From Escherichia coli (GTDB taxonomy: Bacteria; Pseudomonadota; Gammaproteobacteria; Enterobacterales; Enterobacteriaceae): a stretch of 64,000 nucleotides of DNA. The stretch lies in assembly GCF_003334765.1 (NCBI RefSeq), contig NZ_QOWT01000015.1. One strand, given 5' to 3'. Below the pieces are notes generated by a model. It ran no database searches. It saw nothing but the letters and a program-made list of their open reading frames with translations, and was not told the origin of the DNA. Below are positions 29,427 through 33,047 of the stretch, in pieces. Made by a program: the position numbers and the translations under genes. How positions within the stretch are numbered: position 1 is the stretch's first letter; each line of letters opens with the position of its first letter.

Positions 29427-30698
29427 TTACTCAATCAGCTTCAACAGTGGCGACAAGCATAGCAAAATGCCGTACAGCAGAATCAGCCAGGCTTTAAATC
29501 CGCGAAGTTTTTCCAGTTGTGCGACTTTATAGATCAGGAAAAACGGAATGAGGCACGACACAATACCATATAACGGGCTTCCCAACTGAAAGAACACCAG
29601 CACCGATACACGAAACGAAACCCAAATCGTCAACGTAATGACGATAAAAGCGCAGATCGCTAGAGTCAGCACGCGTGAGTTAATTTTCTTGGTATCAATA
29701 ATTCGGCTTAACAGATTGAGAATAATGCCTTTAATGGCCTCGTGGAAACCGAGATAAATGCCAAAGAATGCGGTCAGTACGGCAAAGATATTAAGCACCG
29801 TAGAGGTGATATGAATGATATGCCCAGGGATCACCTGCGCGGCCAGCGCCAGTGCTGAGATATTTTGTTCAAAGGCAGAAACGGCTTCTTCGTGGCTAAT
29901 TGAGAAGGTAAACGAAAAGGCAAAAAACAGGATCACCGCGATGAGCGTGATATAACTAATTCGGTGGGTACGCAGCGCGAGCCGGGTTGCCAGTACTTTA
30001 TCCGCTTCCCGTTTACGATAGGCAATATTCATTGGGTTAAGTACCTGAATAAATACTGCAGAAAAGAAGCAAAATGGAATGGTAAGCAAGACATCGCGGA
30101 AAAAGACGGAGGCTTGCGGGAAGGCGGTTATATTGGCGAAATTCCAGTGCGGGATCATCGCAAAACCGAACACGACAATAATCCCTACTTTGACCACCAC
30201 CATTGGCCCGGAAATCTTAAACAGTAATCGTTCACCACCAGACGCAATCGCCACCAGTACGGCGAAAATAGCGACTTTATAAAGTAGAGATTGTGAAAGA
30301 TCGGCATCGGTTAAACCGAAGGTTTTCAGGTACGAGGCGCTGTCGAAAACCACGGAGAGAGAGTAGATAAAAATCCCGTGGATAATCATCAAAAAGTAGA
30401 TAACCCCGAGGAAAATTCCCCAGTTCTTCCCCAGGTAATGACTGATAATATCGGTGTAGTCATTACAGGAATCGCTTTCAGAAAGGGTTTTTAAATAAAT
30501 GTCCTGCACTACCCAGGTGGCAGGATAAGCAATGATCGCTGCGGTAATAAATACCCAAATTCCCTTCAAGCCAATTTGTACTGGCATCAGCACGGTTCCG
30601 GCACCAATCGCCATGCCTATGCATAATAAAACCCAGCCGAAGTCGTAGCGTGTAAACGGCAATTTCTGATTGTGTTTCGATAGTGTGTTGTGCTGCAT
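29427..30698 (-). CDS. yhjV: Amino-acid permease-family inner membrane transporter YhjV (423 aa)
   Basis: ORF track 29427..30761; start placed at [34 protein letters not shown]...; HAAAP/serine-threonine permease-like fold. Confidence 0.88.
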
Positions 30699-31057
30699 AA
30701 AGTCCTGTCCAGAAAGAAGTCGGCCTCGCAAAAATGAATAAACCCAGTTTCTCTTGCGCAACAGGTGGAGAAGTCGAATACGCAGTATGTAAAAAATGAG
30801 GCAACAGATTCACTGGGGAGGTCGCGAGGAGGCGCAATTCTACAAAATTGCGCATTTCACTACCAGTCTGGAGTCAGCCCGGATATGAACTGCAACTATT
30901 GCAAATAAAGAAATTAAGCTGGAAGGCATCGCGCAATGAGGAAGATTGCCGGGTGCTGACAGTAAAAAGCAATCGTAGAATCAGCGGCAAGCCGGAAAGG
31001 TTCCGGTGAGGCGCAATGTTGCGGGGGCTTTATCCCTGGTGGCATTGGTTGCTGGAG

Positions 31058-31125
31058 AGAGAAAACCCCCGCACGTTGCAGGTATGCACCTGACAACACC
31101 ACGGGGGCTAATCTTGACTCTAGAC
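31058..31125 (-). ncRNA. rdlD: Rdl-type antisense regulatory RNA opposite the ldrD leader (approximate boundaries)
   Basis: Reverse strand reads GTCTAGAGTCAAGATTAGCCCCCGTGGTGTTGTCAGGTGCATACCTGCAACGTGCGGGGGTTTTCTCTC: a GC-rich hairpin plus U-run terminator ending ~31058, about 50 nt upstream of the ldrD ATG, as expected for ldr/rdl loci. Confidence 0.45.
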
Positions 31126-31173
31126 CACTCAAGAATAGCCGCGAAACGTTGTCATTACAACACAGGCGGCTAT

Positions 31174-31281
31174 ATGACGTTCGCAGAGCTGGGCATGGCC
31201 TTCTGGCATGATTTAGCGGCTCCGGTCATTGCTGGCATTCTTGCCAGTATGATCGTGAACTGGCTGAACAAGCGGAAGTAA
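31174..31281 (+). CDS. ldrD: Type I toxin LdrD (35 aa)
   Basis: C-terminal 35 codons of ORF-track 31006..31281 read MTFAELGMAFWHDLAAPVIAGILASMIVNWLNKRK, the Ldr small hydrophobic toxin. Confidence 0.85.
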   Translation: MTFAELGMAFWHDLAAPVIAGILASMIVNWLNKRK

Positions 31282-31367
31282 CGTGTCATGCGGGCGTCAG
31301 GCTGCCGTAATGGCAATTTGCGCCCGGACCAGGCCGCAGGGGGGAAACTCTGCGGCCTTTTTCGTTC

Positions 31368-33047
31368 TTACTGCGGGTAAGGCACCCAGTCGCCGCCGTT
31401 CAGGCGAACGTACGGTTTATCCTGGTATTGAATAACTACTGCATTTGAGTTCTCGGAGACCGGTGCTGTTTGTGGCAACCCACTGGTGAGTTTTTTCCAG
31501 TCAACATTGTCTTCGGTGAAAATCTTGCCATCGAGAACGCGAACCACCAGATCGGAGATAGCCAGGAAGCTGCTCGGTTGTTCGATGACAATCGGTGCCC
31601 CCTGATGCGGTGCCTTCATGCCGAAGAATTTCACCCCAACGGGGACGTCGGTGATAGACGGGCTAGGGATATCACGTAGGCCAGATACCTGCATTCTGTC
31701 GCCCTTCAGCGCGCCGCCGTGTTCCGGCACCACGACCACCATCACTTTACGACCCGATTTCTCAAGTTCAGTAAAGAAGGCGTCCAGTTCATCAAAGAAT
31801 TTCTGCGCCCGCGCTTTGTAATCCGCTGTTTTGCTGACCCCCGGATAATGGTTGCCGTCATGCAGTGGAAGCGTGTTGTAGAACGTGGCACTACGGCTGT
31901 TTTTATCTTTTTCGGTAACGTCCAGCCAGCGGTTAAGCACAGCGGTATCGTCATAAACCGGCGAACCATCAAAGCCCAGCAAAATAACCGGCAGATTTGT
32001 TTGATCCATCAATTCGCTCTGCATGCCGCCATTTTCGCGAACTTCTTTCAAAAAACCGCCGAACTGGCCGTTATGTCCCATCATCAGGTGCTGGGTAAAG
32101 CCCAGTTTCGAAAGGTTATCAAACAGATAGCAGTCGTTATTTGCCGGTTGATACAGATTAGTGTGCGAAGTCTGCCCGCAGCTGGCGCGCAGTAAACGGA
32201 TCGCCGCCGGGCCACTGTAGGAGGTGGCGGAGTTAAAGTTCTTGAACTCAATATCGAAATGCGACCACAGTGGATGCGACATCAACCCGGCGGCTTCTAT
32301 ATCCGACCAGGAAAGCGAACAGATGTTAATCACCAGTAGTTCAAATGGCTGAGCATCAGCGGGCAGCGAAGACGGGAAGGTCGATTTACGTTTCGCCTCC
32401 GCGTTATAGAAATTATTCAGCCAGGCGTTAAGGTTCGCCGTTGTTGGCGGTGCAGTTTGTGCGGGCATATCACCCACTACCGGTGCGCCACCCGTCGCCG
32501 CAACGGTTGCCGCTGCGTTACCACCCGTCGTTGTTACAGTGGTCGTCGGTTGTCCGGCTGGCCACAAGGAGAAACTTGGTCCCGCCAGGGTAAGTACGTT
32601 CAGCCATAGCAGTATGGCAACCACAAAAACGGTAATGCGAATCCATTGTGACAGGAATAACCAGGCCACTAATAAAACAAAAATGGCCCCAATCATCTGC
32701 CAGTTAATAAAGCGTGTGACAAGGTCGATTAAATAATCGGTACTGAACCCCGCCACCTGCGAACCCTGGCTCATTATGCTTTCCGGGCCAGGCAACCAGG
32801 TGTCATGCCAGAACAAAGCAAAGCCGATCGGCAGGGCAATCCAGTGGCGCAAGCGATGCAGGCTGTAGCGCGGAAGGGGCATCAGCAGAAACGCGGCAAA
32901 CACCAAATTGAGGAGCGGATGGAAGTTAAGATATCCCGCCCACAACAGGCCGAACTTAACCAGAAAATAGAAGTTCCAGCCGGAAAGGCCGCGCCAGTAT
33001 TGCCAGAGGGAAGAAGGCATGGCGGTATTTTGCGTAAATTGAGTCAT
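31368..33047 (-). CDS. bcsG: Cellulose biosynthesis protein BcsG, phosphoethanolamine transferase (559 aa)
   Basis: ORF track; N-terminal TM region plus C-terminal alkaline-phosphatase-like domain; last gene of bcsEFG. Confidence 0.93.

Follow-up and report, generated by a model that had tools for sequence, protein, structure and literature searches.

The gap between yhjV and bcsG in Escherichia coli raises the question of how an antisense RNA controls a toxin gene whose start codon lies beyond the reach of the duplex it forms. The window analysed here, a stretch of 64,000 nucleotides of E. coli DNA (RefSeq assembly GCF_003334765.1, contig NZ_QOWT01000015.1), contains this gap at 30699–31367 (669 bp), bounded by yhjV on the left (29427–30698, minus strand) and bcsG on the right (31368–33047, minus strand). 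The toxin gene is ldrD and the antisense RNA is RdlD, whose mechanism of repression is described in reviews as not established (PMC8309996) and as a matter on which 'further work is needed' (PMC4147584).

Sequence comparison revealed 100% identity between positions 30650–31420 of the window and E. coli K-12 MG1655. Part of the gap is filled by a repeat of about 392 bp (30974–31365), which over its whole length is homologous to the units of the LDR family and shows 79.4–80.2% identity to LDR-A, LDR-B and LDR-C, the three tandem units adjoining kdsA/chaA. This repeat was found in 5426 out of 5426 complete E. coli genomes. The locus can be assigned with high confidence, a grade that also takes in a mechanism based on RdlD, to LDR-D, the fourth 'long direct repeat' of E. 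coli K-12, with its ldrD/rdlD type I toxin-antitoxin pair. An ldrD/rdlD module between yhjV and bcsG, near the cellulose genes, had been proposed in the initial annotation and is confirmed by the identity with MG1655, by family models, by PDB entry 5LBJ and by the literature (PMC4147584, PMC8309996, PMC7373196). The placement of this module in a gap of 670 bp was right as to location, but the gap measures 669 bp and the module occupies 30974–31365 only. Nothing argues against the identification as ldrD/rdlD. Published work and the annotation of the reference genome already cover the locus and both of its genes, LdrD toxicity, control by the antisense RNA and the peptide structure.

The remaining part of the gap (30699–30973, no strand assigned) lies outside the module, save for a −35-like box of ldrD at its right edge. 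No homology to LDR-A, LDR-B or LDR-C, no Rfam match at E ≤ 1 and no feature of NC_000913.3 was found in this segment, which presumably represents the promoter and leader of yhjV.

The coding sequence of ldrD (31174–31281, plus strand) comprises 35 codons, and its product MTFAELGMAFWHDLAAPVIAGILASMIVNWLNKRK contains one transmembrane helix. Both the coordinates and the peptide had been given exactly in the initial annotation and agree with the RefSeq coding sequence. LdrD matches positions 1–35 of the 35 positions of the Pfam family Ldr_toxin (PF13940) with 93.7 bits (E 6.9e-27), the sole match in the Pfam search, and is identical in sequence to chain A of PDB entry 5LBJ, 'Small toxic polypeptide LdrD'. 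None of the NCBIfam models captures the peptide; the type_I_tox_Fst model (NF033608) aligns with residues 15–35 at 13.8 bits, below its cut-off of 26 (E 0.039). For this exact peptide, growth arrest and nucleoid condensation upon overproduction have been reported, the toxicity is relieved by co-expression of rdlD, and both transcripts have been detected (Kawano et al. 2002, via PMC4147584 and PMC8309996). The experiments that had been suggested for this locus, detection of the transcripts and induced expression of ldrD, have thus already been published with a positive outcome (PMC4147584, PMC8309996).

Upstream of ldrD, the putative promoter (30953–30981, plus strand) consists of a weak −35-like box GTGCTG (30953–30958), a spacer of 17 nt and the −10 box TAGAAT (30976–30981), and it is here that the homology to LDR-A, LDR-B and LDR-C begins. 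Across the Ldr loci compared, the −10 box (TAGAAT, TAGTAT or TAATAT) keeps its position together with a GTG or ATG motif 17–18 nt upstream. The candidate promoter of rdlD (31132–31160, minus strand) is composed of the −35 box TTGTAA (31155–31160), a 17-nt spacer and the −10 box TATTCT (31132–31137), all read as reverse complement, and would place the start of the RNA at 31125. Its boxes are likewise kept in position, as TTGTAA, TTGCAA or TTGTCA and TATTCT or TATCCT in nearly all of 31 loci, with TATCTT in a Klebsiella MAG. A consensus scan of 30600–31450 at a cut-off of 9 out of 12 positions yielded no sigma-70 sites; both promoters match at most 8 of 12 consensus positions and are defined instead by this positional conservation.

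With its 5′ end derived from the −10 box and its 3′ end from the terminator, the ldrD mRNA would span about 375 nt (30988–31363, plus strand). This agrees with the description of a stable mRNA with a long 5′ UTR (PMC4147584). The predicted fold of the mRNA reaches −182.3 kcal/mol (z = −7.87), a stability attained by none of 100 shuffled sequences, and the region can be aligned throughout across six genera. The intrinsic terminator detected by a terminator scan (31331–31363, plus strand) is formed by an 11-bp stem (31331–31358) followed by UUUUU. In an alignment of 34 Ldr copies representing six genera of enterobacteria, conservation extends to both promoters, the stem-loop of Rdl and the terminator, and rdlD and the promoters keep their positions in these genera.

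The antitoxin gene rdlD is encoded on the minus strand at 31060–31125 according to Rfam and at 31062–31125 in RefSeq NC_000913.3, corresponding to an RNA of 64–66 nt. Model positions 1–66 of 66 of the Rfam family rdlD (RF01813) are matched at 87 bits (gathering score 50, E 1.6e-18), and Rfam also recovers rdlD from 19 of 20 related loci, where its relative position is unchanged. In the predicted fold, RdlD begins with an unpaired 5′ tail, continues into a long stem-loop rich in GC and finishes in UUUUCU; the folding energy is −29.5 kcal/mol (z = −3.98), matched by 0 of 200 shuffles. Moreover, the terminator scan of the minus strand found a terminator-like site at rdlD, with a GC-rich stem at about 31066–31109 and a U-run at 31060–31065. 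The initial annotation had described a hairpin with a U-run on the opposite strand, about 50 nt upstream of ldrD; the element is present, but this distance suits the 5′ end of rdlD and not the terminator hairpin, which lies 65–114 nt upstream of the ATG. Since the match of LdrD to Ldr_toxin has an E-value of 6.9e-27, RdlD folds with the z-score given above and the repeat occurs in all 5426 genomes, chance is excluded as an explanation of the module.

Situated between the −10 box of ldrD (30976–30981) and the ATG at 31174, rdlD lies within the inferred toxin mRNA, as expected for a type I pair. RdlD is complementary throughout to ldrD's 5′ UTR, over the stretch 49–114 nt upstream of the ATG. 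As the duplex stops 49 nt short of this codon, a direct block of the ldrD start is impossible and repression has to be indirect. In the proposed mechanism, the 35-residue membrane peptide LdrD is encoded by the structured mRNA (about 375 nt, roughly 30988–31363, plus strand), whose ribosome-binding site, judging from the 34 copies, may never be free, being sequestered by a local hairpin or by extended pairing to the 3′ UTR. Pairing would also join the two termini of the mRNA, a resemblance to hok mRNA. First contact is probably made between the single-stranded 5′ tail of RdlD and the hypervariable loop of an mRNA hairpin at 31112–31134, a contact which would give each LDR copy its cognate antitoxin. 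The duplex covers the motif GGGGG-N6-UUG at 31103–31116, and RdlD most likely prevents ribosomes from loading upstream, the blocked loading point being a leader ORF or in-frame start, or else a standby-type site. In addition, the duplex may mark the mRNA for RNase III.

The folds on which this proposal relies were assessed on the alignment of the 34 Ldr copies. In the consensus fold, 98.4% of cells are paired, compared with 36–48% in slid controls, and 12 pairs are changed on both sides, compared with 5.2 in shuffles (0/500). At the 5′ terminus, helix 1 of the consensus forms a hairpin (30991–31007, plus strand; GCCGGA...UCCGGU), the closing pair of which covaries between G-C in 17 sequences and A-U in 13. 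Adjacent to it, GGCGCA (31010–31015) is predicted to pair over a long distance with UGCGCC (31319–31324) on the same plus strand, both in the single-sequence minimum free energy fold and in the consensus fold; the two halves are essentially invariant in the 34 sequences and thus provide conservation without covariation. The stem of the intrinsic terminator, helix 18, is conserved in all 34 sequences with G-U and compensatory variation.

Within the RdlD target, helix 9 forms the hairpin at 31112–31134 (plus strand), with compensatory changes from U-A to C-G in four sequences and from G-C to A-U in two. Its 13-nt loop (31117–31129) is complementary to the 5′ tail of RdlD and represents the most variable segment of the repeat, differing between LDR-D and LDR-A/B/C as well as among E. 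coli alleles, with invariant flanks. Judged by this pattern of variation, the loop is likely to be the recognition loop of RdlD.

Downstream of the target, helices 10 and 11 enclose the Shine-Dalgarno region of ldrD in a local hairpin (31135–31173, plus strand), in which AUAGCCGC (31135–31142) pairs with GCGGCUAU (31166–31173). Enclosed in it is an inner hairpin (31148–31161; GUUGU-CAUU-ACAAC) that covaries between C-G in 19 sequences and U-A in 14. Alternatively, in the minimum free energy fold of the K-12 sequence, the start region (31148–31185) pairs with a segment of the 3′ UTR (31289–31317, plus strand). Applied to the 34 sequences, this long-range fold leaves 87.1% of cells paired compared with 34–50% in slid controls, an advantage inflated by the origin of the fold in the K-12 sequence; it also contains 13 pairs with changes on both sides, compared with 8.6 ± 1.4 in shuffles (0/500 reach this number). 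Covariation thus supports two mutually exclusive predicted folds of the ldrD start region, the local hairpin and the pairing with the 3′ UTR.

A candidate upstream translation start is located inside the RdlD target (31103–31116, plus strand), where the Shine-Dalgarno-like run GGGGG (31103–31107) is followed after 6 nt by TTG (31114–31116); this codon shares the frame of ldrD and precedes its ATG by 60 nt. According to a model proposed by Gerdes and Wagner and repeated in reviews (PMC4147584, PMC8167048, PMC5416894, PMC8594479), translation of a mok-like leader ORF, ldrX, would open the ldrD start. That such coupling is the whole mechanism, RdlD acting solely by occluding the upstream start, is less probable than not. 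In its favour are the position of GGGGG-N6-UUG within the RdlD footprint and the frame of this UUG, which stays open up to the ldr ATG in all 26 copies that possess it, despite indels that shift it among all three reading frames. In LDR-A, LDR-B, LDR-C and Salmonella, the frame ends in a classic ATGA overlap, and the sequestration of the ldrD Shine-Dalgarno sequence in conserved structure implies that some unfolding activity is needed. However, frame openness discriminates weakly: a leader-type ORF, whether fused in frame, overlapping by ATGA or stopping at +17, is present in 26 of 31 loci, and 20 of the 26 have another open frame as well. Five otherwise intact-looking Klebsiella copies carry CUC in place of UUG, and two of these are without any canonical start in the open frame. 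Furthermore, an experimental test of the coupling hypothesis is lacking (PMC4147584), and a literature search for ribosome-profiling or standby-site evidence on ldrD retrieved nothing concerning an upstream start. On sequence grounds, the published ldrX coupling model is compatible with the LDR comparison, and unproven.

LDR-D itself complicates the idea of a separate leader peptide. An extra C at 31163 brings the upstream UUG into the frame of ldrD, and in eight out of eight LDR-D alleles the TTG frame is open and in frame with the toxin, so that its fusion to ldrD would yield an extended LdrD of 55 residues instead of a separate leader peptide. A further reading takes this arrangement at face value. 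In the LDR-D copies (this locus, the eight E. coli LDR-D alleles and Citrobacter), RdlD would control UUG 31114 as the start of a 55-residue, N-terminally extended LdrD without any ldrX peptide, LDR-A, LDR-B and LDR-C would use a 20-codon leader with ATGA overlap, and a hok-like switch of the start region between the two conserved folds would be superimposed. This combination is considered quite improbable. If true, paralogues of one toxin-antitoxin family would give two outputs from the same regulatory start.

Three other frames upstream of ldrD were rejected. The in-frame ATG at 31084, 90 nt upstream, and the 91-codon frame initiated by GTG at 31006 are interrupted by in-frame stops in some E. 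coli alleles (O157, FDAARGOS_1254, CB7453 and SMN152SH1) and do not qualify as conserved extended ORFs. A 25-codon ORF at 31016–31093, considered as ldrX, stops short of the ldrD start and is frame-shifted in LDR-C.

Repression might also dispense with upstream translation altogether, in a manner similar to tisB/IstR-1. RdlD would then remove a single-stranded landing site for ribosomes, lock the mRNA in an inactive fold, or both, with RNase III inactivating the mRNA. As the whole explanation this is rather unlikely, and several observations fit it: direct occlusion by the duplex is impossible at the distance given above, the Klebsiella copies retain the RNA architecture and rdlD in the absence of the upstream start, and the start region has two conserved folds that exclude each other, a sign of conformational control. 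RNase III generates abundant products from the ldrD/rdlD overlap, where an RNase III-dependent peak of double-stranded RNA of about 21 nt lies (PMC7373196). Decay alone is improbable, however, because loss of RNase III makes the ldrD mRNA only slightly more abundant and longer-lived; in rnc mutants, both the ldrD and the rdlD RNA are slightly stabilised (PMC7373196). In the predicted folds, moreover, the RdlD target is largely structured and would offer a poor platform for standby binding unless the mRNA were processed first. A standby site in ldr is a proposal by analogy with tisB/IstR-1.

That the locus is a decaying, functionless remnant, a selfish repeat without a working toxin or antitoxin in this strain, is highly improbable. 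In its favour, deletion of ldrD or rdlD left proton-gradient dissipation unchanged, and the rdlD mutant gave no more than a small signal in membrane potential (PMC11997105); what chromosomal type I modules do physiologically is also under debate (PMC4147584). Against it, the ORF, the two promoters, the fold of the antisense RNA and the terminator are all undamaged and have been kept in six genera at a syntenic site, every complete E. coli genome searched carries the repeat, both transcripts have been detected and the induced peptide is toxic (PMC7373196, PMC4147584, PMC8309996).

The comparison of the LDR copies offers testable handles on how RdlD represses ldrD: the indirect nature of repression, two conserved alternative pairings of the ribosome-binding site and a hypervariable loop that is the likely site of recognition. 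A further handle is the proposed leader ORF itself, frame-fused in LDR-D and absent in the five Klebsiella copies. This represents a modest refinement of a known system and will chiefly concern specialists in type I toxin-antitoxin modules.

Comparison with known systems revealed no difference from ldrD/rdlD of K-12 MG1655 (b4453, b4454); the intergenic region and the flanking gene ends are identical, and the neighbours are again yhjV and bcsG. The K-12 pairs ldrA/rdlA, ldrB/rdlB and ldrC/rdlC share the architecture of about 392 bp, with an identity of about 80% and toxins of equal length. Whereas the 5′ UTR and the rdl stem are nearly identical between LDR-D and LDR-A/B/C, the toxins are only 57% identical, and the apical loop and 5′ tail of RdlD differ together with their mRNA targets. 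LDR-D is furthermore a solo copy at a separate chromosomal site, in contrast to the tandem arrangement of LDR-A, LDR-B and LDR-C.

The hok/sok system with its mok leader, found on plasmid R1 and in chromosomal copies, resembles ldrD/rdlD in its small membrane toxin, in a stable mRNA that is highly folded and has a long 5′ UTR, in antisense pairing upstream of the toxin start, in a leader frame (proposed for ldrD) and in cleavage of the duplex by RNase III (PMC4147584, PMC3874152). Pairing of the 5′ and 3′ ends and alternative folds of the start region are predicted likenesses on the side of ldrD. Membership in hok/sok was rejected: the Rfam model sok (RF01794), whose gathering score is 59, gives a weak hit of 24.2 bits on the mRNA strand, and in Pfam the toxin is a member of Ldr_toxin and not of Hok. 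For hok, activation by 3′ processing and leader coupling have been demonstrated, and the likeness of ldr is one of organisation only.

Like LdrD, Fst of the par locus of Enterococcus faecalis pAD1 (Fst/RNAII) is a short membrane peptide that has one helix and carries charge at its C-terminus. Ldr has been grouped with Fst in one superfamily, and nucleoid condensation is common to both (PMC4147584, PMC8309996). In Fst systems, however, the overlap between antisense RNA and toxin mRNA is at the 3′ end of the latter, whereas RdlD pairs with the 5′ UTR of ldrD (PMC8594479). With respect to regulation, tisB/istR-1 shows a similar layout, its antitoxin RNA acting far upstream of a sequestered toxin start so that repression is indirect. 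It differs in that IstR-1 is encoded divergently and does not overlap the toxin transcript in full, in that tisB is controlled by LexA, and in that the toxin belongs to another family.

The open reading frame of ldrD, read directly in the region 30500–31600, extends on the plus strand from an ATG at 31174 to a stop codon ending at 31281 and encodes MTFAELGMAFWHDLAAPVIAGILASMIVNWLNKRK, as stated in the initial annotation. The 35-residue peptide matches the Pfam family Ldr_toxin end to end (E = 6.9e-27) and has exactly the sequence of the chain in PDB entry 5LBJ, 'Small toxic polypeptide LdrD'. In NCBIfam, its sole match was to the Fst family and stayed below threshold (13.8 bits versus a cut-off of 26). 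In a megablast search of all complete E. coli genomes, the segment 30650–31420 was matched in 5426 of 5426 genomes, with at least 80% of the query covered in 5394 and with 100% identity in many strains, K-12 MG1655 among them. RefSeq annotates yhjV, ldrD and bcsG beneath this match, which places the toxin gene between yhjV and bcsG as proposed, and NC_000913.3 additionally lists the ncRNA rdlD (b4454), corresponding to 31062–31125 on the minus strand (the window is reversed relative to the reference, the record coordinate being 3731261 minus the window coordinate). Identity and arrangement of the toxin and antitoxin genes are established, and the locus is already known.

Both flanking genes lie on the minus strand: the transporter gene yhjV ends at 30698, and bcsG (559 codons) starts at 33047 and ends at 31368. 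A strong ldrD terminator followed by a T-run was located at 31331–31358 by a terminator scan. The hairpin (31331–31370 region) ends 9 nt from the stop codon of the convergent bcsG, and on the minus strand it is followed by GGTCCGGG in place of a U-run; bcsG transcription may therefore read through and would then be antisense to the entire ldrD mRNA.

Searching positions 30000–32000 against Rfam returned a full-length match to rdlD (RF01813, model positions 1–66 of 66) at 31060–31125 of the minus strand, with 87 bits where the gathering score is 50 (E = 1.6e-18), and thus an antisense RNA on the strand where one had been postulated. In its predicted fold, RdlD begins with an unpaired 5′ tail (about 11–15 nt), continues as a long stem-loop rich in GC and ends in a UUUUCU tail (−29.5 kcal/mol, z = −3.98, none of 200 shuffles being as stable); its lower stem was also recovered on the minus strand by the terminator scan. 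The distance of about 50 nt originally assigned to the Rdl hairpin applies to the rdlD 5′ end, located 49 nt upstream of the ldrD ATG, but not to the terminator hairpin and U-run, which lie 65–114 nt upstream. Likewise, the gap of about 670 bp described for the module does exist (30699–31367, 669 bp), but homology to LDR-A, LDR-B and LDR-C, the tandem K-12 paralogues adjoining kdsA and chaA, is limited to 30974–31365 (79–80% identity). The other 275 bp, on the yhjV side, lack LDR homology, an Rfam match and annotation. Altogether, the observation made in the initial annotation is confirmed and its interpretation supported.

Each of the four LDRs encodes a 35-residue Ldr toxin together with an Rdl RNA about 60 nt long; overproduction of LdrD is toxic, an effect relieved by co-expression of RdlD (PMC4147584, citing Kawano et al. 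2002). The effects of LdrD are a rapid arrest of growth and condensation of the nucleoid, and its α-helical transmembrane domain has been solved by NMR (PMC8309996). A double-stranded RNA peak of about 21 nt, attributed to RNase III, lies inside the ldrD/rdlD overlap, and mutation of rnc slightly stabilises both RNAs (PMC7373196). When membrane potential and proton gradient were assayed, ldrD and rdlD mutants displayed little phenotype (PMC11997105). Toxicity, rescue and duplexes cut by RNase III have thus been shown in the literature, and since toxicity, rescue and transcript data are published, the experiments first suggested for this locus have already been done.

When a collection of species-representative genomes was scanned once with an Ldr alignment, 30 loci were recovered from Escherichia, Citrobacter, the Klebsiella oxytoca group, Kluyvera, Pseudocitrobacter and Salmonella arizonae/diarizonae. 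After LDR-D alleles of varied E. coli strains had been added, 34 copies were aligned from −200 to +199 around the ldr ATG. An rdlD match above the Rfam gathering score was present at the corresponding relative position in 19 of the 20 loci searched. Many Ldr loci adjoin bcsG and, in Escherichia and Salmonella, also yhjV; this synteny across genera indicates that the site is old. Both promoters are conserved by position: that of ldr on the plus strand (TAGAAT at 30976–30981, preceded at a 17-nt spacing by a weak −35-like GTG motif) and that of rdl on the minus strand (TTGTAA/TTGCAA, 17 nt, and TATTCT/TATCCT ending 7 nt before the RdlD 5′ end).

Some species possess tandem arrays at the bcsG site. 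Two to three Ldr/Rdl units, with bcsG downstream, are found in each of Escherichia sp. E1V33 (two units between yhjV and bcsG), K. michiganensis, K. oxytoca and K. spallanzanii, so that copy number at the old insertion site varies between species. E. coli genomes contain 1 to 12 LDR-like places (median 4), 27 of these places being on plasmids. In Pseudocitrobacter vendiensis (match at 1201–1305) the Ldr ORF stops prematurely after 30 codons and loses the charged C-terminus; this toxin is possibly inactivated, beside an intact rdlD (85 bits). A 503-bp contig with a coverage of 0.66 in an assembly named 'Bacillus sp. EB106-08-02-XG196' (NZ_JABWSY010000055.1) carries an ldrD 97% identical to that of E. 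coli with K-12-type upstream sequence, and is almost certainly E. coli contamination. Codon 3 of ldrD (31180–31182) specifies Phe in K-12-type LdrD (MTFAEL) and Leu (MTLAEL) in each of the seven further E. coli LDR-D alleles retrieved as well as, excepting this contig, in the species representatives. Among the alleles sampled, the well-studied peptide of K-12 is therefore in the minority.

Across LDR copies, the 5′ UTR/rdl region is much more conserved than the toxin ORF, the toxins being merely 57% identical. Upstream differences from LDR-A, LDR-B and LDR-C are concentrated in two segments: around 31079–31088, the apical loop of the Rdl stem, and 31117–31129, within which lies the sequence complementary to the Rdl 5′ tail. 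According to reviews, RdlD overlaps the 5′ UTR of ldrD and not its ribosome-binding site, and Gerdes and Wagner suggested that ldrD is coupled to a leader ORF, ldrX, in the way that hok is to mok.

A possible upstream start lies inside the RdlD footprint and consists of a GGGGG run (31103–31107), 6 nt and a UUG (31114–31116). In LDR-A, LDR-B, LDR-C, S. arizonae and S. diarizonae, a frame of 20 codons begins at this UUG; its UGA stop shares bases with the ldr AUG (AUGA), a classic arrangement for translational coupling. In LDR-D an extra C at 31163 places the UUG in frame with ldrD, and this nucleotide alone decides between a fused frame and the ATGA overlap; initiation at 31114 would give a 55-residue extended LdrD. 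The UUG is in frame in each of the eight E. coli LDR-D alleles that were compared and also in Citrobacter. In Pseudocitrobacter and one Kluyvera copy, a stop at +17 closes the frame. All 26 copies having the UUG keep its frame open to the ldr AUG; with 20 of the 26 also showing another open frame, this openness is weak evidence. Five Klebsiella copies, otherwise intact and with rdlD detected in four, have CUC in place of UUG, and two of the five lack a canonical start anywhere in the open frame. A mechanical ORF list contains a 91-codon frame from GTG (31006–31281, plus strand) running unbroken into ldrD, of which only the last 20 upstream codons, from UUG 31114, are open in all E. coli LDR-D alleles. 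The more distant starts ATG 31084 and GTG 31006 were rejected as conserved features, their frames being broken by stops in some E. coli alleles (O157, SMN152SH1 and others).

The consensus fold of the mRNA strand in the 34-copy alignment comprises 88 pairs, with 98.4% of cells paired compared with merely 36–48% when partners were slid. Twelve pairs are changed on both sides versus 5.2 ± 1.5 in column shuffles, none of 500 reaching the observed value. Compensatory changes occur, among other helices, in a 5′-terminal hairpin (30991–31007), a hairpin with a 13-nt hypervariable loop complementary to the RdlD 5′ tail (31112–31134), and an inner hairpin (31148–31161) enclosed by the helix 31135–31142/31166–31173, which buries the Shine-Dalgarno region of ldrD. 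In the K-12 minimum-energy fold (z = −7.87), the start region 31148–31185 instead pairs with the 3′ UTR (31289–31317) and the 5′ end 31010–31015 with 31319–31324. For this alternative, derived from one of the aligned and related sequences, 87.1% of cells pair versus 34–50% slid, and 13 pairs are changed on both sides versus 8.6 ± 1.4 in shuffles (0 of 500); the 5′–3′ end pairing is invariant and carries no covariation. Subject to these reservations, two conserved and mutually exclusive pairings seem to be available to the ldrD start region.

Direct occlusion of the ldrD ribosome-binding site by RdlD should be impossible, because the duplex ends 49 nt upstream. On the predicted folds, the ldrD start would itself be structurally sequestered. 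RdlD probably makes first contact through its 5′ tail with the variable hairpin loop, which would provide paralogue-specific recognition. Most likely, it then blocks upstream ribosome entry, either leader or in-frame initiation or a standby-type site, and the duplex most likely triggers cleavage by RNase III. Between the coupling model and a standby or structural model the data do not decide. The residual value of the locus lies in these mechanistic details alone and is modest, for specialists in type I toxin-antitoxin systems.

On the strand of the ldrD 5′ UTR, Rfam sok (RF01794) matches 31023–31176 (plus strand) weakly, below threshold (24.2 bits versus a gathering score of 59, E = 0.0078), and ends exactly at the ldrD AUG. 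In T1TAdb, one E. coli Ldr/Rdl locus is classified as Hok/Sok by RNA features (PMC8594479). The sok-like signal may reflect a convergent or distantly related leader architecture, and together with the T1TAdb entry it is consistent with a hok-like arrangement: the hok mRNA is a known example of the kind that the two exclusive start-region pairings of ldrD resemble.
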